DNA from: a virus
UHGV virus genome: UHGV-0300374
Reading direction: 5' to 3' (one strand)
Length of the DNA stretch: 64,000 bases
The position numbers and the translations under genes were made by a program. The notes beneath the pieces were generated by a model. The model saw only the letters and a list, made by a program, of their open reading frames with translations. It was not told the origin of the DNA and did not search any database. Of this stretch, positions 4,948-30,432 are shown piece by piece. The number at the start of each line of letters is the position of its first letter. Position 1 is the first letter of the stretch.

Positions 4948-5505
4948 GTGATAGATATGGAAAAAGATAACTTAAAAGATGTTGAAGGTAACTATCTAGT
5001 CCTTGACTGGAAGGATGTTCGGGAAGCACTCTCCGAAGAAAATCTTGACTGGTTCGAACAAATTATCTTTGCAGTACGGCATAACCGAGAAGTTGAAAAT
5101 GGTAAAGAGCCATTAGAAGGAATCTTTGTAGAGAGGTCTTATCCGTTCTATGAAGACACTTTGCAGAAAGTTAAGATGTACTTTAAACAGAAGAACCGTA
5201 AAGTGGTCACTATGGTATCTCTTGGTGGACAGAGTATGTCTGTGATGGAAGATATCAACCCTAAGAGACCGAGTAAAGGCGTTTGTATAAAAATCACAGG
5301 ACATGAAGAGTATATCTCAGTTGATGACTTTAGTGCATTCTGTAATGGCTCTTGTGTCTTTAATGGTTTTCACTATGATATCCGAGTGTACCCAATCAAG
5401 GGAGATGATATCATGATGCAGGTATTTGATAACAACAATGGCTTTACTCATTTTTATCAGACAACCAAGTCATCACTAAAAACAGTTCTGGAAACACTGA
5501 TTTAA
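4948..5505 (+). CDS. hypothetical protein
   Basis: 185-aa ORF, last gene of the plus-strand early block. Confidence 0.45.
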   Translation: MIDMEKDNLKDVEGNYLVLDWKDVREALSEENLDWFEQIIFAVRHNREVENGKEPLEGIFVERSYPFYEDTLQKVKMYFKQKNRKVVTMVSLGGQSMSVMEDINPKRPSKGVCIKITGHEEYISVDDFSAFCNGSCVFNGFHYDIRVYPIKGDDIMMQVFDNNNGFTHFYQTTKSSLKTVLETLI

Positions 5506-5514
5506 AATATCTTA

Positions 5515-5542
5515 AGAGCCTCCTTAATTGGGGGCTTTTTAT
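5515..5542 (+). terminator. probable rho-independent terminator
   Basis: Imperfect hairpin AGAGCCTCC-TTAATT-GGGGGCT followed by TTTTTATT. Confidence 0.4.
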
Positions 5543-5544
5543 TG

Positions 5545-7130
5545 AGTAAAATTTACGAAATTTATATTTTTATAAAATTTTATCGGTTGTCCCAACCTCT
5601 GGGTCACCATCATATGTGAACAAAATATCTACCCTTCTTAACAACCTTCTTAATCTTACTCTCTATATAGTTATATAGTACTATATAGTATCTTAGTAAC
5701 TATCTAGTGGTCTTAATAGCCCTCTGTATAGCCCTTCTAAATAGCCATCTAAACACTCTTCTAACAAGCCTTCTAAACAACCTATACAATCATCTTAACC
5801 ATCTCTCTACACACTCTTAGAAGCTCCTATACACCTCTTAATCTCTATGTAAGCTATGATACTCTCTATAGGTGTTCACTAGGTATTACTAAGCCTCTAT
5901 ATAGACTGTTTTAGCCAACTTAACAGGAATATCTTTACAGACCTTATCTCACAAGGTCTAACACGGTACTAACAAGGTATCTTATAAGCCTGTTTCTACC
6001 TGTATTTTAGAAAGACTGTATAGGTAATTATTCAGAATTTTAAAATTTTTATAAAATAGGACTATCAAGTCATTTTTTAGGGTCTTTGAAGGAACTGAAA
6101 AATATCTGATTAGGATGTATATCTGCTTGGTAGCCCTTAACAGCTCCCTTACAAGTACTTTGCAAAATTTTAAAATATCCTTAACAATCTCTTAACAGTT
6201 CTCACATCTTCTTAACAACTCTTCAAAGGTCTTAACAGATTCTTAACAAGTCTAACAAGGTTGTAACAGTTTTCTAACAAGACTTAATAGGGCTTTACAG
6301 AATCTTAACAGATGACTAACAAGAGCTAACAAGTTAATTTTAAAGAGTTATTTTGTTAAGATAATTAACAAGTTTCTAACAAGTGTTTAATCTTTTTAAC
6401 AAGCTATTAACATGGTCACTATCTCTTTCTTATCGTTCCCTTTCCCTTCTTAGTGATTCCTTAAACATACCTCTTAAAAGCTCTCTATAGCTCTCTATAG
6501 CTCTTTATAAGCCCCTTTAAGCCTCTTCCTAGTATTTACCCCCCAACTGTACAGATAGCTCTTTATAGGTCTTTACAGGAGCTTTTAAGGCTATGTCAAA
6601 GACTCTTACAAGGCTTTTACGTGGTCTTAACAGAGATTTAACAAGGGGCTAACAAGTTGCTAACAAGTGCCTTAAAAGCATAACTATGTAGGGTTTGTTA
6701 AGAAATTGTTAAGAAAATGTTAAGGGGGCTAGCATTTACGTAACTTTATAGCCTCTTTTACGTAACTTTGAAGTAACTTTATAGCCCCTATAACATGTTT
6801 TTTAGTGACTAGCAAGGGGGTTGTTTAACCATTCACAAGATACTAACCAGCCTATAAGCTTACACCCTTATAAGATTCTTTTAAGCCTCTATAAAGCCCT
6901 GTAAAGAGCTTTTTAAGATAGGTTAATGCAATCCCTTAAGTTAGGTTGATAAGGCTGTTATAGAGCTTTATAGAGCGTTTAAATGGGCCATCCCCTTTCT
7001 GGGGTTATTGGCTTTTATTTAAGTTGATTTGATAAAAGGTTATAGAGTAGACTATAGAGTTATTGCTTTTAAGGTCTGATAAGATTCTGGAAAGGAAAGG
7101 GAAAGGGATTGTATAAGGATTCGATAGACG
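5545..7130. repeat. ORF-free block of short degenerate direct repeats (YTAACAAG, CTNTATAG, CTTTTAAG units) at roughly 10-11 bp spacing
   Basis: No ORF of 60 aa or more on either strand across 1.6 kb; dense recurrence of cttaacaag / ctaacaag / ctctatag / ctttatag words. Confidence 0.6.
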
Positions 7131-7156
7131 TAAAAAAGCCCCTATTTAAAGGGGCT
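7131..7156 (-). terminator. rho-independent terminator ending the minus-strand small-gene array
   Basis: Minus-strand AGCCCCTTTAAATAGGGGCT hairpin followed by TTTTTTAC. Confidence 0.5.
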
Positions 7157-7194
7157 GTTCAGGTATCTGGGGCTATTTAGCCCCGCTGCGTCGA

Positions 7195-7443
7195 TTAGTT
7201 ATAATCTTGTTTGTTGTAGTACAGGGAGACGATTTTTTCTCCCCAATAGTGATAAGTATAACCATCCTTGAGAACTTCTTGTTTTGTTTCCTCCCAGAAC
7301 TCATCCGAAGGATTATAATCTTTGATGGTCTGACTGATAAGACCTTTCACCATTTCAAAGGCGTTATCAGTGCCTGCAATGTCAAATTTAACATCCAGAG
7401 AGGAAAAACCGAACTCGTTAACAGTAGCGCGGATAGTTGCCAT
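7195..7443 (-). CDS. hypothetical protein
   Basis: 82-aa ORF preceded by a repeat cassette with RBS. Confidence 0.4.
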   Translation of the reverse strand: MATIRATVNEFGFSSLDVKFDIAGTDNAFEMVKGLISQTIKDYNPSDEFWEETKQEVLKDGYTYHYWGEKIVSLYYNKQDYN

Positions 7444-14219: not shown

Positions 14220-15005
14220 TTAGTTCTTTGCGTCTAAGAAGGTAACTTCTGGTGAAGAGAAGATTGCCTCGATATCCTCATCAGTTCTTGCATAGATATA
14301 AGCTTCTGCATCACTACCAAATGTTACAGCAATTCTGTGATTGCTCTTTGACAGGTGGGTAACTAGAGCGTTACTTAGAGACATCTTTTCAACCGGAGGG
14401 TTACTTTGATGTATCTTACCTTTTCTTCGTCTGAAGAGGGTAACTGCATTATCCGTGAACACTGCTACACCTGCAAAGTATTCTGGTTCACAGTAGTTCT
14501 TCCAACCTGAGAGTAACTTGTGGTACATCTCTCCTTCATAGACATATAGATAAACATCTACACTCTTCATAACCTGATTGATGATAACTGTGACGGCTTG
14601 AGAGTCTAGTCCACCGATACCTGCACCAATCATAGGTAACCCAACTTTCTTCAACTGATTGACTTCACAGTATCTGTTAAGTTGTTTCAAAGATGACTCT
14701 AAAGCACTGTATCGGGCATCTTTACCAGTCTTAAGCTGAGTGTAAAGGTTAGCTATACGGCCTTGTTCTAAACGTGCTACAGAGAAATTACCCAGTAAAT
14801 TTTCACAGGGTTTGTGACCTATACCACCTGCATAGAGGTAAACTTCTGTATCGGTCTCATATGCTTTTGGGTAAAGTTTAGAAATCTTGTCAGCGATACC
14901 TGCACCCATTAAATTCATACAGTTGCAACCGTGACCAATAATATCAAACTTACCTTTATCAAATGCTGAGAAGATATCCCCATTGATGATTTTTACAATA
15001 CCCAT
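14220..15005 (-). CDS. macro-domain protein (TARG1/OARD1/DarG-like, ADP-ribose binding or hydrolase) with uncharacterised C-terminal domain of about 110 aa
   Basis: IINGDIF...DIIGHGCNCMNLMGAGIADKI and VGLPMIGAGIGGLD resemble the two glycine-rich ADP-ribose-binding loops of TARG1-type macrodomains. Confidence 0.6.
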   Translation of the reverse strand: MGIVKIINGDIFSAFDKGKFDIIGHGCNCMNLMGAGIADKISKLYPKAYETDTEVYLYAGGIGHKPCENLLGNFSVARLEQGRIANLYTQLKTGKDARYSALESSLKQLNRYCEVNQLKKVGLPMIGAGIGGLDSQAVTVIINQVMKSVDVYLYVYEGEMYHKLLSGWKNYCEPEYFAGVAVFTDNAVTLFRRRKGKIHQSNPPVEKMSLSNALVTHLSKSNHRIAVTFGSDAEAYIYARTDEDIEAIFSSPEVTFLDAKN

Positions 15006-21939: not shown

Positions 21940-22116
21940 TTACTTATTAAACATTTTACCAGAACCACCACACATAGGGCAACATCCTGCCCTTATGTAC
22001 CCCTCTCCATTACAGTAGTCACATTTTTTGTGCTCTGCAAAGTACTTACAAAGGAGGTAAACAAATACTGCTACACTACCAAGTGACAGTAAAATTTCTA
22101 TCCAATATGCTTGCAT
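21940..22116 (-). CDS. hypothetical small membrane zinc-ribbon protein (58 aa)
   Basis: Below the track cut-off; MQAYWIEILLSLGSVAVFVYLL... then CDYC...CPMCGG; RBS GAGG upstream. Confidence 0.3.
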   Translation of the reverse strand: MQAYWIEILLSLGSVAVFVYLLCKYFAEHKKCDYCNGEGYIRAGCCPMCGGSGKMFNK

Positions 22117-22433
22117 GACTCACCTCTCATATTCTTGTAAAGGATAAAGCTTCTGTCATGGACAATACTTGTAGACACTGCAAAGTTACTTTCAAGCATC
22201 TGTTTGTTTGGATTGTAGAAGCTTTCTTTAAACTCGTCAAGTGCAAATTGGTGGTTGTCTGGAAGACCTTTTACACAAACCTTTATTGTGATTGCTGCTG
22301 CAACCTTACCAGTCAGTTCTTCTTTAGCTGCTACTAAAATTTTGTTAAGAAACTTTTTACCATCTTCAGGTTTCTTAATGTTTTCCCAACGTTCTTCTAG
22401 GACAATGTTAATGTTCATCTCTTTGATTTTCAT
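22098..22433 (-). CDS. hypothetical protein
   Basis: 111-aa ORF downstream of the Nampt-like gene. Confidence 0.4.
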   Translation of the reverse strand: MKIKEMNINIVLEERWENIKKPEDGKKFLNKILVAAKEELTGKVAAAITIKVCVKGLPDNHQFALDEFKESFYNPNKQMLESNFAVSTSIVHDRSFILYKNMRGESCKHIG

Positions 22434-22446
22434 AGTCTTCTCCAGA

Positions 22447-22473
22447 AATTAAAAAAGGCTCCCGTAGGAGCCT
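22447..22473 (-). terminator. rho-independent terminator after Nampt-like gene
   Basis: Minus-strand AGGCTCC-TACG-GGAGCCT followed by TTTTTTAATTT. Confidence 0.55.
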
Positions 22474-22487
22474 CTTATCATATACTT

Positions 22488-24269
22488 TTAAAGCTGCTTG
22501 TCAATATTATTTCGAATATCACCAAGAGTTGTGTAGCCGAACTGCTCAGAGTCACTAAAGACTAGACGTAAAGCACAAGCTGGGTGTTCAAGTGCATCTG
22601 CAAAGCTCTGGAACCCATAGCCATCTACAGCTTTCAGCTTATCACCATCCCACATAGGCGCTACACCACCAAAGGCAGATTTCTTAACACCACTATCTGT
22701 TTTAGGGTCTTTTGCAAGCATAATCTCTTTACCACCAATGCTTGCAAGAGTTGCTTTGACAGCAAATGCAAAGGTGTCACGAGTCATGTACTGGTAAGTG
22801 TAAGAGCCTACACCAAACACTACGTTAGAGCTTGCAAAACCCATTTCATACAGACGCTTCAGGATTTCGTTTGCACGTTCCAGCGTGATAGAGTCGCCAT
22901 AAATAAGTCCAATATGCTCATCCAGTACTTTAAAGCCTTTAGAGTTAATAGTTCCCCCAAAGATGTTGTACAGTGTCTTAATAGCTCCATCAATCTCAGC
23001 TACAGGACGTGTTACAACGTTTGCAGAACCAACCATATAAGCATTTTTCAACATCACTGTATCAGCAACTTCAAAGTCTTCTCTGTCAACAACCATCTCG
23101 TAGCCTTCTGACAGTAGCCATCCAGCAATACCATAGTTGATGTTCTCAAGCTTCATGTTCAGAACAGCATTCAACATTGTGTCACTGGCTTCCAGCTTGC
23201 TTAGGTGCTCGTAATAAGCCTTCTTAGCACATTCTAAGTGGATTGCTTTATAACCTGTGACAATATGTACAGGGTCTCCAGAGTCAGGACGAATTACCAG
23301 TTTGCCATCACGTTCCATAATTTCTTTACGGAGTGCTGGTAAAATTTCTGACACAGTTCTCCAGAAGTTATAAGTGTCTGAAACAACACTTGCAATACCA
23401 GTTGGGTAAGTTTCTGTTAAGAAACGACGGAAGGTTTGTAACTCACCTTTAAAGCGTCTTTCTTCTTCAATCAACTCATTACCACCTTCCCAAGCAATGT
23501 TTGCACACATTACAGAGTGTTCAGTGGCTGGTACAGAACTACCAATATCAGAGATTGGGTAAGACTGTCCATAGATGCGTTTAGCCGTGTATACAGCAGG
23601 GAAGCTATCGGTTCCTTTAAAGCTGGTTAAGTGACCTACAGCGTTAAATGCGTCATCAGTAAAGCCGGACATACCACGCATAGCAAAGTCGTGACACTGA
23701 TAAGGTAAATGTAGGTCGTTGTCACAAGTAAGGTCAGCCCACTTCTTACATATACGTTTGTAGTGCAATGCAATAGTCGCAATGGTGCAAGCCTTCCAAA
23801 TCTCAGCAGAGAAAGCATCTTCCAGATAACCTGCTACCCAATGGAAGCCTGAAACAGTGTTCTGGAAGACAATCATTGGGACACGCATCGGGACAACTGT
23901 ACCTTCTTCTACAGCATATACTTCAACTGGTAGATAACCTAAATCGTGGAGTGCTTCCCAATGCTCTCGACCGATAGCATCTTTGCCCAGAACACCATTC
24001 ATGACTTCTAAGATTTCGTCAATTGCTTCTTTTTTGTCACGTTCAAAGAACGTAGCATTCCAGTGGTCTATCAAGTAATCTTTAACAAAACGTTGAATAC
24101 CAAAAGCGACTACACCATCAATTGCTAATGGACTGTTAAACCATTTGTTGCTACGTGGTGTCAGGTTGAACATCAAATATTCTGTTGCACTAGGGTACTG
24201 GTAAACATGACCAGATTTGTAAGCATCTGCGTTTAAACCTGCTGGTACTGCATAAAGTGATTTAGTCAT
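22488..24269 (-). CDS. nicotinamide phosphoribosyltransferase family protein (Nampt/NadV-like; candidate Namat of NAD+ reconstitution pathway 1)
   Basis: 593 aa; N-terminus ...NADAYKSGHVYQYPSATEYLMFNLTPRS typical of the NAMPT family; adjacent to a Prs-like gene. Confidence 0.85.
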   Translation of the reverse strand: MTKSLYAVPAGLNADAYKSGHVYQYPSATEYLMFNLTPRSNKWFNSPLAIDGVVAFGIQRFVKDYLIDHWNATFFERDKKEAIDEILEVMNGVLGKDAIGREHWEALHDLGYLPVEVYAVEEGTVVPMRVPMIVFQNTVSGFHWVAGYLEDAFSAEIWKACTIATIALHYKRICKKWADLTCDNDLHLPYQCHDFAMRGMSGFTDDAFNAVGHLTSFKGTDSFPAVYTAKRIYGQSYPISDIGSSVPATEHSVMCANIAWEGGNELIEEERRFKGELQTFRRFLTETYPTGIASVVSDTYNFWRTVSEILPALRKEIMERDGKLVIRPDSGDPVHIVTGYKAIHLECAKKAYYEHLSKLEASDTMLNAVLNMKLENINYGIAGWLLSEGYEMVVDREDFEVADTVMLKNAYMVGSANVVTRPVAEIDGAIKTLYNIFGGTINSKGFKVLDEHIGLIYGDSITLERANEILKRLYEMGFASSNVVFGVGSYTYQYMTRDTFAFAVKATLASIGGKEIMLAKDPKTDSGVKKSAFGGVAPMWDGDKLKAVDGYGFQSFADALEHPACALRLVFSDSEQFGYTTLGDIRNNIDKQL

Positions 24270-24314
24270 CTTTTAATCTCTCTCAAAATGGGGCTTTCAA
24301 GCCCCTATAAACTT

Positions 24315-25196
24315 TCAATCAAGGTTTGCTACAGTAACTTGACCATAATGTGTTAAGCCACGGTCTTTAGCTTCGCCTAAAGAGTTTGTAGTGTAAATAT
24401 GGTCGATACCATTGTCAAGAAGGTTTTCAACACCTTTAGAGAAGATACCATGTGTTACATAAAGCTCAACACGTTTTGCACCTGCTTCACGAAGATGTTT
24501 AGCTGCTTCTATGAAGGTTCGACCACCATCACAGATATCATCAAGAATCATAACAGTTTTATCTGTCAAATCAACATCATCAAGGATTCGCATACCAGTA
24601 ATTTCTCCAGTCTTAAGATTTCGCACCTTAGACATTGTGATATATGGTTTATCCACCTCTTTAGCAGTCTCTGCAATCTTCTTAGAAGCACCTGCATCTG
24701 GGGCTACTAAGTAATCAACCAGTGGGTCATTTGCATAGTGGACTGCAATTTCCTTTTGAGGAATACTCTGGAAGCAGTTAAACAGGTTATCTGGTGCATA
24801 ACTGTGAGGGTCAACTGCACAGACTGCACCAAACCCCATTGCATTGACCTGTTTAGCAAAAACCTTTAAAGCTGCTGCATCACCTTTAAACATGTGACGG
24901 TCGTATCGTGCATTTGGCAAGTAGTAAAAAATGACAGTCTTCAGGGCATAATCATGAGGAACTAAATCGTCAATTGCTTCTTTAGCCAGTGCCACAGCAA
25001 ACAGTGTGTCTTTGTCATAACCCTTTACAATCATAACCACATTGTTAATAGATGATGCTGCATAAGCAGTAAAATCAACAAGCTCTTGTGAAAAGTGGCC
25101 ACCAATCTCACCAGAAGGGAATTGGATGATGTTAAACTCTTCTTCATGAGTTCCTTTAGTCGGTGAATGAATTGTGACACGGATAGATGTTTTCAT
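24315..25196 (-). CDS. ribose-phosphate pyrophosphokinase family protein (Prs-like; candidate Adps of NAD+ reconstitution pathway 1)
   Basis: FPSGEIGG near the N-terminus and PRTase loop VMILDDICDGGRT; start trimmed to ATG 25196 (RBS AGAGGAAA), the track start being a TTG. Confidence 0.8.
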   Translation of the reverse strand: MKTSIRVTIHSPTKGTHEEEFNIIQFPSGEIGGHFSQELVDFTAYAASSINNVVMIVKGYDKDTLFAVALAKEAIDDLVPHDYALKTVIFYYLPNARYDRHMFKGDAAALKVFAKQVNAMGFGAVCAVDPHSYAPDNLFNCFQSIPQKEIAVHYANDPLVDYLVAPDAGASKKIAETAKEVDKPYITMSKVRNLKTGEITGMRILDDVDLTDKTVMILDDICDGGRTFIEAAKHLREAGAKRVELYVTHGIFSKGVENLLDNGIDHIYTTNSLGEAKDRGLTHYGQVTVANLD

Positions 25197-25207
25197 AGTT
25201 TCCTCTC

Positions 25208-25486
25208 TCAATCAAAAGTTACGTTTGTTACTGCCATTGCAGATTTGCATTTTACAGGGTCTACAACGTGGTAAAGTACACTACAGTTACCTGTGCTGTC
25301 TGGTACAGGCTTTACCCATTGCTGCTTTATAGTTGGCTCTCCTAAGTCTTTGTAAGAACCATCTGTAAAGTTGTTTACCATCTCAAGTGCAATTGGTTCT
25401 GGAACATGACCACGTATCATGTACATCTCACAACCATTACCTCCTTCACTGACTAATGGTAAAATCTCCCACTTTTCTTTAGCCAT
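25208..25486 (-). CDS. hypothetical protein
   Basis: 92-aa ORF directly upstream of the Prs-like gene. Confidence 0.4.
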   Translation of the reverse strand: MAKEKWEILPLVSEGGNGCEMYMIRGHVPEPIALEMVNNFTDGSYKDLGEPTIKQQWVKPVPDSTGNCSVLYHVVDPVKCKSAMAVTNVTFD

Positions 25487-25994
25487 TATAAGTTGCCCTA
25501 TAAACTGTCTCGAACTTCAACAGGAGAGATATTGCCAAATCTGTATAGTTGTTGTCAAGCACATCTGGCATATTATTTTTGATATATTTCTCTTGCTCTT
25601 CATAGGTCATCTTAGGGATGCTTAGAAGGATATCTCCTTGCTTCTGGTTATCAGCTTTAGTTTGGATAAACCAGTTCGCACAGTGATGTTCACCACCTTT
25701 TGTAACAGGCTTGTGGTGGCCTAGTGTAAATGTTTGCTTACCCGTATACCTGCAAAGATTGTTCAGTGTTGCAATGGTGTTCTTCACAACACACCATTCA
25801 TACAGGTTATCTATTGTGTAGTATGGGTAATAACGGACAAGTGCTCTTTCACGGAAGTTATCATGATTCCAAAGAACCATGTGATTAGAATTTGAAGGGT
25901 CATATTTGTGGGAGTCTATAAACTCTTGACGCTCATCAAAGCTGAGTCTTAGAACTGACATTGCAACCGAACGTTTCAGGTTTGACAGGTACAT
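25479..25994 (-). CDS. HNH nuclease-domain protein (possible homing endonuclease)
   Basis: LGHHKPVTKGGEHHCANWFIQTKADNQKQG fits the HNH core pattern HH-x-P-x-KGG-...-N-...-N-x-x-K. Confidence 0.45.
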   Translation of the reverse strand: MYLSNLKRSVAMSVLRLSFDERQEFIDSHKYDPSNSNHMVLWNHDNFRERALVRYYPYYTIDNLYEWCVVKNTIATLNNLCRYTGKQTFTLGHHKPVTKGGEHHCANWFIQTKADNQKQGDILLSIPKMTYEEQEKYIKNNMPDVLDNNYTDLAISLLLKFETVYRATYNG

Positions 25995-26045
25995 TTTACC
26001 TCCAAAATAAAAAGGGAACCTTTACAGTTCCCCTATAGTATCTGT

Positions 26046-28287: not shown

Positions 28288-30432
28288 TTACATAGAAACT
28301 CTGTCACGAATCTCAGCGATTTTTGCATCGTTCATTCGGGATTCACCTTTAATCTTAGTCCATCCAAGATACCCACACACCCTGTTAATCACAGAGATAT
28401 CATGTGAGTGACAAACTTCACATTCTTCAACATCAGCCTTTGGCCTGTTACCACAATGTTCACAGATTGCTAAGTCAAAGTTAAGTCCCTGATAGAAACC
28501 TTTCAACATTCCTCTTGTAATACAGCTCTTAAGTGCTGATAAGTTTTCTGGGTTAGCTACTCTTACATACTGGATTCTACCGCCTCTACAGATATGGAAG
28601 AATGGCTCTTCTAAGTCCTGCTTCTCAAATGGTGAGATGTCTGCTGCAACATTCATATGGAAACTGTTTGTAAAGTATTCCTTATCGGAAACACCTTTGA
28701 TAACCCCAAACATATCTCTGAACTGTTTTAGCTGAGTCCCACATAGTGATTCTGCTGGAGTACCATAGACGGCATATAAGAAGCCATCTTCATTTTTAAA
28801 CTCTTCGGTTTTCATGTTAATGTATGCCAGAACATCATATGCAAAACTATAGCTTCCAACTTCATGAAGTCGTTTACCTTCAGCAAGAACAGACAACTCA
28901 TCAAGCGCAGTAACACCAAAAGAAGCTGTGAAGGACTTCACAATATCCCAACCAACCTTGTCAGTAGGTTTCTTAGTTCCTTTGTACAGACCACCTTGTG
29001 TGAACGCAAGAGGGTTAGAACTTGCTGGCATATTAGCAATCATTTCGTAGCGTTTCTTGTGGAAGTTGCGAATCATCTCTAGGTACTTATCAAGCTCTTT
29101 CCAGAAATCTAAACCATTCTCTTTAGAATACTGGTAAATCATTGGTAAGTTCAAAGATACAGCACCAATATTAGCACGACCAACGTAGAACTCTTCTCCA
29201 TTCTCGTTAAGATATGGGGATAAGAAAGCTCTGCAACCCATCGGTGAAATTACCTTGCCAGAACGCTCAAAAGCTTCTGCTACAGCACCATGACCAGATA
29301 CACTTAAGAAATCTGGATACATCGCTTTAGAGCAACACTCAATAGCTTTGCTGTACAGTTGGCCTTGACAGATATTCTCATCGTGTCTCTTCTGGTCATG
29401 AATATAAACCAGTTTAGGGAATACAACAGGCTTCTTACTCTTACCTTGTCCATTCATGCGAACATCAAGAATGGTGTTTGCAATCATGTATTGCAGTCGG
29501 TTGTCTTCATTAGACATATCTGAGTCAAGTAATCCAAATGTCAAAGTTGTAAATGCAAAATCACCACGGCTACAAGGTACAGTATTTAGTTTCATTTCGA
29601 GTGACTGGAAACCCTGAGTTAATTCAAGCTGTAGCTGCTCCATGACATAATTGTGGTAATGTTCTTTAGGAATACCATAAGATGCTGCTTTCTCAGCATG
29701 ATAGCGTAGAGACTTCTTAGCATACGGCACAAGTACCTTATCAATCTCTGCTAAAGTAAAACCACCAAATTGCTGTGCAGTTGCTGAAAGAACTACGTCA
29801 CCAATAACCTGTAAGGCCGACAGCACAGACTTCGGTTCACAATATTCGATGCCAGACATTTCAAAGCCACCTTTCAGGACTTTACCAATGTCAAACAGGC
29901 AACAGTTGATACCACCAAAAATTAGGTCTCTTAAATCATGGATATAGATAAACCCTTTTTCAATGGCTTCAAGTTCCTCTGGTGTTAAATGGTACTGTTT
30001 AAAGATTTCTTTAGTCAGATAACCACGAATAATTGAACCTTTTGTAGAAATTAAACTGCTGTCAAAGTTAGCATTCTCTCTGTCACCTAAGAAGAGTGTA
30101 TCTCTGGTCTTCTGGTAGAGTTCATCCCAATTTTGAGCAACTTCTTTACGGTAATTTCTATATGTTGAGTAAGACTCATAGATTTCGTGATTGACTTCTG
30201 CCAAAGCACCCTCAACAATACTGTGAATATCATTTACCGAAATTAGCAAATTATTCTGCTTAGTGGACTTTACCAGAATCCTCATAAATGCTGACTCAAG
30301 AGCTTGAGTAACATCTGGTGGAAGCTCTTTATAACCAACTCTGTTAGCTGACTTTGTGACTGCTGCTAAAACTTTTTTGATATCAGGTTCTTCAAGTGAG
30401 CCATTCTTTTTAATAATCTGTACTTTGTTCAT
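28288..30432 (-). CDS. nrdD: anaerobic ribonucleoside-triphosphate reductase (class III)
   Basis: 714 aa; C-terminal Zn-ribbon CEHCG...CEVCHSH and glycyl-radical motif RVCGYLG. Confidence 0.9.
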   Translation of the reverse strand: MNKVQIIKKNGSLEEPDIKKVLAAVTKSANRVGYKELPPDVTQALESAFMRILVKSTKQNNLLISVNDIHSIVEGALAEVNHEIYESYSTYRNYRKEVAQNWDELYQKTRDTLFLGDRENANFDSSLISTKGSIIRGYLTKEIFKQYHLTPEELEAIEKGFIYIHDLRDLIFGGINCCLFDIGKVLKGGFEMSGIEYCEPKSVLSALQVIGDVVLSATAQQFGGFTLAEIDKVLVPYAKKSLRYHAEKAASYGIPKEHYHNYVMEQLQLELTQGFQSLEMKLNTVPCSRGDFAFTTLTFGLLDSDMSNEDNRLQYMIANTILDVRMNGQGKSKKPVVFPKLVYIHDQKRHDENICQGQLYSKAIECCSKAMYPDFLSVSGHGAVAEAFERSGKVISPMGCRAFLSPYLNENGEEFYVGRANIGAVSLNLPMIYQYSKENGLDFWKELDKYLEMIRNFHKKRYEMIANMPASSNPLAFTQGGLYKGTKKPTDKVGWDIVKSFTASFGVTALDELSVLAEGKRLHEVGSYSFAYDVLAYINMKTEEFKNEDGFLYAVYGTPAESLCGTQLKQFRDMFGVIKGVSDKEYFTNSFHMNVAADISPFEKQDLEEPFFHICRGGRIQYVRVANPENLSALKSCITRGMLKGFYQGLNFDLAICEHCGNRPKADVEECEVCHSHDISVINRVCGYLGWTKIKGESRMNDAKIAEIRDRVSM

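Follow-up and report, generated by a model that had tools for sequence, protein, structure and literature searches.

The adjacent adps and namat genes of this phage very probably form a functional NARP1 counter-defence operon of Felixounavirus, judging from their sequences. The window (the whole stretch of viral DNA analysed, 64,000 nt) covers ~62 kb of a ~87 kb Felixounavirus (FelixO1-like) genome and is collinear with positions 14366–76713 of Bas63 (Escherichia phage JohannRWettstein, MZ501086), which belongs to the same genus and likewise carries NARP1 between nrdG and rIIA. The assignment is made because of the orthology to Bas63, the selectivity-clamp signature of Namat, an Adps loop with an experimentally tested lysine, and the failure of Adps to reach the Prs equivalog cut-offs. 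All four support the NARP1-type function proposed in a preliminary description of this DNA. NARP1 is already characterised in Felixounavirus, the genus of its discovery, and the locus reveals no new biology. The minor details that it adds concern the 5´ allele of adps and a distal Macro-domain gene.

Organisation of the operon

Both genes are intact, lie on the minus strand and are immediately adjacent, as in the published adjacency definition of NARP1. The gap between them (24270..24314) is 45 nt, and the ORF list and spacer sequence thus confirm the co-directional pair described earlier. The features of the locus are as follows.

14220..15005, minus strand: Macro-domain 'phosphatase', 261 aa (full-length PF01661, 31.4 bits)
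22445..22476, minus strand: intrinsic-terminator-like hairpin (22476..22453) and T-run, 11 nt past the namat stop (terminator scan, sequence, fold)
22488..24269, minus strand: namat, predicted nicotinamide ADP-ribose transferase, Nampt family, 593 aa (ATG start, 585/593 residues or 99% identical to Bas63_0080)
24290..24305, minus strand: small hairpin GGGGCU-UGAA-AGCCCC, then AUUUUG, in the 45-nt adps-namat spacer (sequence, folding)
24315..25196, minus strand: adps, predicted ADP-ribose pyrophosphate (ADPR-PP) synthetase, Prs family, 293 aa (ORF, ribosome-binding site, 227/293 residues or 77% identical to Bas63_0079)
25208..25994, minus strand: two ORFs upstream of adps, 171 aa at 25479..25994 and 92 aa at 25208..25486 (ORF list)

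The adps reading frame extends to an upstream TTG (24315..25211). The real start is the ATG at 25196, which follows the ribosome-binding site GAGAGAGGA by 5–6 nt and agrees with the Bas63 annotation. The protein has 293 residues; the length of 294 given earlier counts codons including the stop. Both Prs motifs reported in it, FPSGEIGG and VMILDDICDGGRT, were found, and it matches the Pfam families Pribosyltran and Pribosyl_synth and PHROG 619 (1.5e-96). The namat product begins MTKSLYAVPAGLNADAYKSGHVYQYP, and its description as a 593-aa NAMPT-family protein is borne out by the ORF and by matches to NAPRTase (6.7e-35), NAMPT_N and PHROG 448 (4.8e-202). Chance is no plausible source of these family matches.

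The left edge previously given to the locus, 22447, lies 41 nt past the namat stop, and the stretch between holds the terminator-like hairpin. This element (-16.6 kcal/mol, z = -3.6; none of 200 shuffles was as stable) is the probable end of the transcription unit. The spacer hairpin (-12.8 kcal/mol, z = -2.6) is identical in Bas63 and was not called by the terminator scan; it may act as a partial terminator or an RNA-stability element. The two ORFs upstream of adps may be co-transcribed with it, because they are placed between adps and another terminator-like hairpin (26034..26012, terminator scan). They match PHROG 3500 and PHROG 4726, families without assigned function, and are orthologous to Bas63_0077/0078, outside the published 79–80 deletion. 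No evidence of their membership in the pathway was found, and neither contains a Macro or RyR domain.

The corresponding Bas63 operon (bas63_0079/bas63_0080) has the same gene order, the same protein lengths (293 and 593 aa) and a 45-nt spacer, and the Bas63 genome likewise yielded no NMNAT. It differs in the small gene bas63_0081, which follows namat in Bas63 and is absent from the window, and in carrying another allele of the first ~500 nt of adps.

Published activities and the residues that carry them

NARP1 was first defined, genetically and metabolically, by deleting Bas63 genes 79–80 (Osterman et al., bioRxiv 10.1101/2024.02.11.579819). On SIR2-HerA the deletion phage yields ~20-fold fewer plaques and NAD+ restoration is lost. 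ADPR-PP (m/z 720.010) appears only when wild-type phage infects cells with the defence system. Counter-defence was also shown with FADO lacking NARP1 on DSR2 and with SpβL1 NARP1 against Thoeris, DSR1, DSR2 and SEFIR, and 4.3% of sequenced phages are reported to carry NARP1. Conversion of ADPR and ATP to ADPR-PP and on to NAD+ was shown for enzymes from SpβL1, Paenibacillus foliorum and DyoEdafos. In Bas63, whose enzymes were not purified, the evidence is metabolites detected during infection. What is said of the window's chemistry (SpβL1 enzymes) and of its anti-defence effect (operons of Bas63, FADO and SpβL1) is taken entirely from this literature on orthologs. The in-vitro chemistry comes from the homologs of Bacillus phage SPbetaL1 (SpβL1; Adps WIT26982, Namat WIT26983; PMC12774641), which are encoded by an adjacent adps-namat pair and are 29% (Adps) and 46–48% (Namat) identical to the window proteins.

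In the proposed pathway, a host effector with a SIR2, TIR or SEFIR domain would cleave NAD+ into ADP-ribose and nicotinamide. Adps would then transfer pyrophosphate from ATP to the free ribose of ADP-ribose and so form ADPR-PP. Nicotinamide would displace the pyrophosphate in the Namat reaction to give NAD+ directly, without an NMN intermediate or NMNAT, and the restored NAD+ pool would allow the phage to complete infection. We infer from sequence that the window proteins, including the divergent N-terminal allele of Adps, would act as their orthologs do.

The selectivity-clamp helix of Namat, GSYTYQYMTRD (residues 488–498), fits the published Namat motif GSxΦxΦxΦTRD, and its Tyr490 and Tyr494 align with Phe392 and Tyr396 of SpβL1 Namat. 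The adenine clamp comprises Tyr490, Tyr494, Thr496, Arg497 and Asp498 together with the loop Lys42-Trp43. In published Namats the stacking residue of this β1-β2 loop is either an Arg at the third position or a residue that follows Lys or Tyr. The window loop (Ser-Asn-Lys42-Trp43) has the Lys-then-stacking-residue form described for Bas63, whose own loop differs only by N41D, whereas SpβL1 uses Arg40. All catalytic residues are kept (Asp15, Tyr17, Phe195, Arg198, Asp221, His251, Arg327 and Asp329, equivalent to Asp13, Tyr15, Phe189, Arg192, Asp215, His245, Arg306 and Asp308 of SpβL1), and Arg306 and Asp215 are essential in SpβL1 Namat. Every residue that lines the nicotinamide pocket in the SpβL1 crystal structure is conserved. 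Five of the six residues contacting the NMN ribose and phosphate are identical, with Ser190 replaced by Ala196, and the remaining contacts to NAD+ are either kept or conservatively replaced. Two segments of the Felixounavirus Namat have no counterpart in SpβL1, one of ~15 aa near residue 260 and one of ~63–77 aa at ~351–427.

Among solved structures, the window Namat matches the SpβL1 Namat entries 9w5w and 9w5x best (432 bits, compared with 140–180 bits for Nampts), and the SpβL1 origin of 9w5x was confirmed. Identity is 45–48% to Namats with Adps encoded next to them (SpβL1, ICP1, Tomato) but 29–30% to the Nampts of D525 and RB43, and tblastn gives at least 295 bits for Namats and at most 205 bits for Nampts. 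These two Nampts represent NARP2 (Nampt plus bifunctional Nmnat, Vibrio phage KVP40 type), which also restores NAD+ and in which a Nampt fold likewise couples nicotinamide to an activated ribose. In NARP2 Nampts, however, GGGLLQ(Q/E)xxRD replaces the aromatic clamp, NAMPT_N scores 86–115 bits rather than the 25 bits of the window Namat, and no Prs-like gene is adjacent. Profile placement, suggested in the preliminary description, does not tell Namat from Nampt with NCBIfam models; clamp, identity and structure scores favour Namat. As a discriminator NCBIfam was rejected, since NF006629 (labelled 'nicotinate phosphoribosyltransferase' by NCBI) is passed by a NARP2-type Nampt and by the window Namat alike (469 bits, cut-off 405).

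By its profile scores Adps lies outside housekeeping Prs. It falls below every NCBIfam Prs equivalog cut-off (best equivalog 104.6 bits, cut-off 296), scoring 91 bits on the E. coli-type Prs model (cut-off 297; E. coli Prs 533) and 120 bits on the broad subfamily model TIGR01251, barely above the cut-off of 113 (E. coli Prs 423). Lys190 aligns with the active-site Lys162 of SpβL1 Adps, whose change to Ala abolishes activity. This residue sits within KxR[ND]xxTG[EDN]I, a flexible-loop motif that six phage Adps have in common and E. coli Prs does not have. Bas63 Adps is itself one of the query sequences of the published Adps clade. A search for solved structures returned no Adps, the best PDB matches being archaeal Prs (60–68 bits), and the literature search found no Adps structure paper.

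Alternatives to the NARP1 assignment

The pair shares its folds with housekeeping E. coli Prs and bacterial or human Nampt, as well as the chemistry of pyrophosphoryl transfer from ATP to ribose C1 and of displacement by nicotinamide. It could be read as a general metabolic booster for classical salvage, in which the Prs-like protein makes PRPP, the Nampt-like protein makes NMN, and host NadR or PncC/NadD completes NAD+. Database names and the Pfam and NCBIfam models do call the pair Prs and Nampt, and the operon adjoins the nucleotide-metabolism genes nrdG, nrdD, nrdA/B, td and frd. NARP2 needs an Nmnat, a nucleotidyltransferase often fused to Nudix, and the preliminary description had reported no NMNAT in the window. 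Pfam, phmmer and motif searches agree. Among 101 window ORFs, CTP_transf_like and Nudix have no match at E <= 0.0067; E. coli NadR and NadD, searched with phmmer in the six-frame fragments of both the window and the complete Bas63 genome, give nothing better than E = 3; and the motif G..F.P..[HT].GH is absent from six-frame translations of both. An NMNAT elsewhere in the genome, which would have pointed to salvage, was likewise not found in the whole of Bas63 by phmmer or motif. For Bas63 outside the window, where Pfam covered the best 25 of 40 families, the absence is based on phmmer, the motif search and the record annotation. The E. coli queries and Pfam stand in place of a phage Nmnat: beside the NARP2-type Nampts considered as a source, the gene of Vibrio phage D525 is preceded by a 361-aa ORF that has no Pfam match, and RB43 has no adjacent candidate.

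The earlier argument that the missing NMNAT favours NARP1 reached the right conclusion by a weak route, as the window is ~62 of ~87 kb and host activities are usable. Absence of a phage NMNAT does not by itself decide against classical salvage, because the NadV route could draw on host NadR or PncC/NadD. The lines of evidence named at the outset decide the case. An assay meant to test ribose-5-phosphate as substrate yielded no product with SpβL1 Adps, and the window Adps scores far below the E. coli-type Prs cut-off. E. coli Prs, 23% identical to it, has DKRRPR in place of the Adps loop and a C-terminal extension that the window protein lacks. The adenine clamp of the window Namat is absent from Nampts; Namat offered both substrates makes only NAD+, and in cells free of defences NARP1 phages cause no overproduction of NAD+. 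Classical salvage is in our judgement extremely unlikely to be the function of the pair. Some salvage flux may nevertheless accompany the NARP1 reactions, because Namat makes NMN from PRPP and nicotinamide in vitro and passes the Nampt-family equivalog NF006629.

The divergent part of adps raises a separate question within the NARP1 assignment. Its first ~500 nt show 60–83% nucleotide and 66% amino-acid identity to Bas63. Among the N-terminal 180 residues 118 are identical (62 differences), compared with 109 of 113 (96%) in the C-terminal part, and the change is abrupt: directly upstream of the breakpoint the nucleotide identity is 97%. The alleles are bimodally distributed in the database. 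Such a pattern could mean that the window allele differs functionally from that of Bas63 (in substrate range, in regulation, or by being impaired), so that the operon would not be Bas63-like. The divergent part has ω = 0.17 (0.08 in the C-terminal part) and a saturated dS of 1.4. Both alleles are therefore under purifying selection after an old split, and positive selection or decay as the source of the divergent 5´ part is rejected. Moreover, the two alleles do not differ in any catalytic motif (NARYDRH, DPHS, APDAGA and the Lys190 loop), the window allele outnumbers that of Bas63 (156 records vs 97), and the functional SpβL1, FADO and ICP1-type Adps are far more divergent (25–31% identity). 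A functional departure from Bas63 is considered very unlikely. It is also very unlikely that the two ancient N-terminal alleles, beside a near-invariant Namat, are kept in Felixounaviruses by selection for different function. If they were, they might differ in the ADP-ribose derivatives accepted or in sensitivity to a host factor targeting Adps, and the window allele would act differently from that of Bas63.

The Macro-domain gene 7.5 kb downstream of namat, ~14 genes away on the same strand, encodes the only Macro protein found. It could extend the operon in the manner of NARP1-AP, dephosphorylating ADPR-1''-phosphate made by aRES and supplying ADP-ribose to Adps in trans. PF01661, which it carries at full length, is one of three Adpp-type Pfams of the published screen, and that screen was limited to two genes from NARP1 and would therefore miss a distal gene. 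However, its relatives are TARG1/OARD1 and the DarG antitoxin macrodomain rather than Poa1p-type Macro_2. Homologs were recovered from 2855 phage records, some of them of T4-like phages with the annotation Tk.4, and genetic work identified T4 Tk.4 as AdfM, an anti-DarTG2 factor. The family therefore does not seem to be linked to NARP1, because T4-like genomes such as RB43 have a stand-alone Nampt without adjacent Adps. By sequence, the protein resembles T4 Tk.4/AdfM more than Adpp. As the leading reading of 14220..15005, Adpp was rejected for these affinities and for the position beyond the two-gene neighbourhood, and a NARP1-AP-like role is highly doubtful. Within that neighbourhood, the genes at 25208..25994 and 21940..22433 contain no Macro domain. 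RyDEP, a RyR-domain cADPR glycosidase, is found inside or beside some NARP1 operons; Pfam scans gave no RyR match among the window ORFs.

Annotation and predicted resistance

The practical value of the NARP1 assignment is annotation. More than 200 Felixounavirus records name the pair ribose-phosphate pyrophosphokinase and nicotinamide or nicotinate phosphoribosyltransferase, and Namat and Nampt are not told apart by the present models of NCBIfam and Pfam. NARP1 can be distinguished from salvage simply and reliably by three features in combination: the GS[YF]xYxYxTRD clamp in the Nampt-like protein, an adjacent Prs-like gene with the KxR[ND]xxTGxI loop, and no Nmnat. With this operon, phage-therapy candidates of the genus are predicted to withstand NAD+ depletion of the SIR2, TIR and SEFIR types; resistance to aRES, the producer of ADPR-1''-phosphate, does not follow from it.

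The adps-namat operon and its counterpart in Bas63

The Prs-family gene adps and the Nampt-family gene namat, proposed in the preliminary description as a NARP1-type pair (Adps converts ADPR and ATP to ADPR-pyrophosphate, from which Namat forms NAD+ with nicotinamide), are both intact; as stated there, they are co-directional and separated by 45 nt (here 24270..24314). The operon comprises the following elements.

26034..26012, minus strand: terminator-like hairpin (terminator scan)
24315..25196, minus strand: adps, intact ORF of 293 aa, ATG at 25196
24290-24305, minus strand: adps-namat spacer element, a 6-bp GC hairpin (GGGGCU UGAA AGCCCC) with a following AUUUUG, unchanged in Bas63 (Escherichia phage JohannRWettstein)
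22488..24269, minus strand: namat, intact ORF of 593 aa (ORF list)
22476..22453, minus strand: strong terminator-like hairpin with T-run, past the namat stop codon

The ORF list extends adps to an upstream TTG (24315..25211); the biologically sensible true start is the ATG, which is preceded by GAGAGAGGA and yields 293 aa. The motifs quoted earlier (FPSGEIGG, VMILDDICDGGRT and NADAYKSGHVYQYP) were all found in the sequence. The span first assigned to the pair, 22447-25196, holds for the genes, except that its left edge overshoots the namat stop and takes in the terminator-like hairpin. Pfam identifies NAPRTase and NAMPT_N in the 593-aa protein and Pribosyltran and Pribosyl_synth in the 293-aa protein, with PHROGs E-values of 1e-96 to 1e-202 for the pair. 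The two outer hairpins enclose four genes: adps, namat and two ORFs, of 171 and 92 aa, both without an assigned function. The spacer hairpin could act in transcription attenuation or in stabilisation of the adps message. A near-consensus sigma-70-like promoter (22477-22504, minus strand; TTGACA, 16 nt, TATGAT; 11/12 matches) extends across the 3´ end of namat right up to the terminator hairpin; a transcript initiated from it would start inside the hairpin and run into the gene at 22433. A clean 345-bp indel at 22431-22439 distinguishes the window from Bas63, in which bas63_0081 (114 aa, PHROG 20372, function not assigned), missing from the window, follows the namat terminator.

Megablast with the operon matched 261 phage records (best 97% identity), nearly all of them from Escherichia, Salmonella and Shigella phages of the genus Felixounavirus (FelixO1-like), and the wider window follows the same pattern. 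Positions 14366-76713 of the Bas63 genome (87.1 kb) are collinear with the window, which thus holds ~72% of a Bas63-type genome. In Bas63 (MZ501086), bas63_0079 (293 aa) and bas63_0080 (593 aa) are also 45 nt apart, a layout identical to that of the window, and both operons lie between nrdG and rIIA. Window Namat matches Bas63_0080 at 585/593 residues and window Adps matches Bas63_0079 at 227/293. NARP1 was discovered in Bas63, where loss of operon 79-80 lowers plating on SIR2-HerA ~20-fold and abolishes NAD+ restoration, and where ADPR-pyrophosphate appears only in defence-carrying cells infected with wild-type phage (bioRxiv 10.1101/2024.02.11.579819).

Adps and Namat compared with Prs and Nampt

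Window Adps reaches 120 bits with the broad TIGR01251 model, compared with 423 bits for E. coli Prs, and falls below every NCBIfam Prs equivalog cut-off; with the E. coli-type equivalog it scores 91 against a cut-off of 297 (E. coli Prs, 533). Its PDB relatives are distant (archaeal Prs, 60-68 bits; E. coli Prs, 47 bits). With window Adps as phmmer query, the four distant Adps scored 110, 85, 67 and 60 bits and E. coli Prs 47 bits. Six Adps were aligned with E. coli Prs: those of the window and Bas63, the biochemically characterised enzyme of Bacillus phage SPbetaL1 (SpβL1), that of FADO, which has been tested genetically, and those of Tomato and ICP1. Window K190 aligns with SpβL1 K162, whose Ala substitution abolishes Adps activity. 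In the surrounding loop, all six Adps carry the motif K-x-R-[ND]-x-x-T-G-[EDN]-I, whereas E. coli Prs has DKRRPRANVS at this position.

The solved structures nearest to window Namat are 9w5w/9w5x (432 bits, compared with 140-180 bits for bacterial and mammalian Nampts). The SPbetaL1 gene is 100% identical to the 9w5x sequence; both entries are therefore the structures of SpβL1 Namat reported in PMC12774641, in which a 'selectivity clamp' of Namat was defined. HMMER alignment shows that the catalytic core residues named in that paper are conserved, as D15, Y17, F195, R198, D221, A248, H251, R327 and D329. The clamp is also present: it consists of Y490, Y494, T496, R497 and D498 plus the K42-W43 loop, in the form that the paper ascribes to Bas63, a Lys followed by the stacking residue. 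In a MAFFT alignment, window Namat has GS[YF]TY[QA]Y.TRD in common with three Namats encoded beside an Adps gene (SpβL1, Bacillus phage Tomato, Vibrio phage ICP1), whereas the Nampts of Vibrio phage D525 and RB43, which stand alone, have GGGLLQ instead. Identity to these groups is 45-48% and 29-30%, respectively. The Nampt-family equivalog NF006629 is passed by both window Namat (469 bits) and D525 Nampt (488 bits), so HMM names alone cannot decide between Namat and Nampt. Felixounavirus Namat also carries two lineage-specific insertions, of ~15 aa (residues ~258-275) and ~63-77 aa (residues ~351-427), neither of which occurs in Nampts or in the Namats of SpβL1, ICP1, Tomato and FADO; insertion length differs among other phage Namats.

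The alternative is classical salvage, in which Prs and Nampt would feed an NMNAT. The reported absence of NMNAT from the window was borne out by Pfam, phmmer and motif searches. CTP_transf_like and Nudix were not among the Pfam matches listed for 101 window ORFs (longest list: best 25 families, last E = 0.0067); the genome part beyond the window was examined via Bas63 (Pfam, best 25 of 40 families). E. coli NadR and NadD gave a best phmmer E of 3.1 against all six-frame fragments of the window and whole Bas63, and an NMNAT motif-context regular expression had zero matches in the same fragments. On its own, a missing phage NMNAT, taken in the preliminary description to favour NARP1, would not rule out classical salvage, because host NadR and PncC/NadD could supply that step. 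That gap is closed by the Bas63 experiment in which host pncC and nadR were dispensable for the NARP1 effect (bioRxiv 10.1101/2024.02.11.579819). The same preprint reports no phage in which NARP1 and the Nampt-Nmnat route NARP2 occur together. Orthology to Bas63 79-80, the Namat clamp and the Adps loop motif support the NARP1-type reading, and, judged from sequence, the window pair very probably works as NARP1.

Two adps alleles in Felixounavirus

The operon is 93-99% identical to that of Bas63 at the nucleotide level, except for approximately the first 500 nt of adps (window ~25200..24700), where only 60-83% is reached and the upstream boundary is abrupt. Divergence from Bas63 is distributed as follows.

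adps codons 1-170: dS 1.41, omega 0.17
adps codons 171-293: dS 0.39, omega 0.08
namat, all codons: dS 0.19, omega 0.03

By tblastn, the N-terminal 180 aa of Adps are bimodal, with 156 records at 90-99% identity, 97 at 60-80% (including FelixO1) and zero between. The identity patch, the substitution rates and this bimodality therefore indicate that two old, discrete N-terminal alleles circulate in Felixounavirus, swapped by recombination and both under purifying selection. The window carries the commoner allele and the experimentally tested Bas63 the rarer one. All catalytic motifs are identical between them, and a functional difference is very improbable.

Other window features and the annotation of NARP1

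NARP1 has two known extensions, the Macro-domain phosphatase Adpp, at most two genes from the operon, and the RyR-domain glycosidase RyDEP; neither an Adpp-type Macro domain nor a RyR domain was found in the operon's neighbour genes (Pfam, PHROGs). The sole Macro protein of the window lies 7.5 kb downstream.

14220..15005, minus strand: Macro protein, 261 aa, N-terminal domain PF01661 (31.4 bits)

Its closest structures are TARG1/OARD1, its best NCBIfam match is the DarG antitoxin macrodomain, and its homologs span 2855 phage records, some annotated Tk.4, with 'phosphatase' in relatives. In T4, Tk.4 was identified as AdfM, which counters DarTG2. Given this likeness and the distance, the protein was set aside as a NARP1 part and treated as a separate counter-defence gene, probably one that counters ADP-ribosylation of DNA. 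The last ~100 aa of the protein contain no known domain and are confined to Felixounavirus-like phages.

Elsewhere, nrdD (28288-30432, minus strand) is whole, whereas that of Bas63 is split by a ~740-bp insertion with the homing endonuclease bas63_0068; a SegE-like GIY-YIG endonuclease match lies elsewhere within 21940-43367. No tRNA genes were found in the window. At a switch of gene orientation and GC skew, 1.7 kb without ORFs (5505-7195), bounded by GC hairpins (5507-5540 and 7133-7166), contains ~20 copies of CTTAACA(A/G) / CTAACAAG, which lie in either orientation and are often spaced by 11 nt; this stretch may serve as a replication origin or as a field of regulatory iterons.

The system itself is an established one, the archetypal NARP1 operon from the very genus that yielded the discovery; among sequenced phages, 4.3% are reported to carry NARP1. 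Public names for homologs of 22488-25196 are ribose-phosphate pyrophosphokinase, nicotinamide or nicotinate phosphoribosyltransferase, and even nadR. Such names, together with an equivalog that passes Namat and true Nampt alike, indicate that automated annotation systematically hides NARP1.
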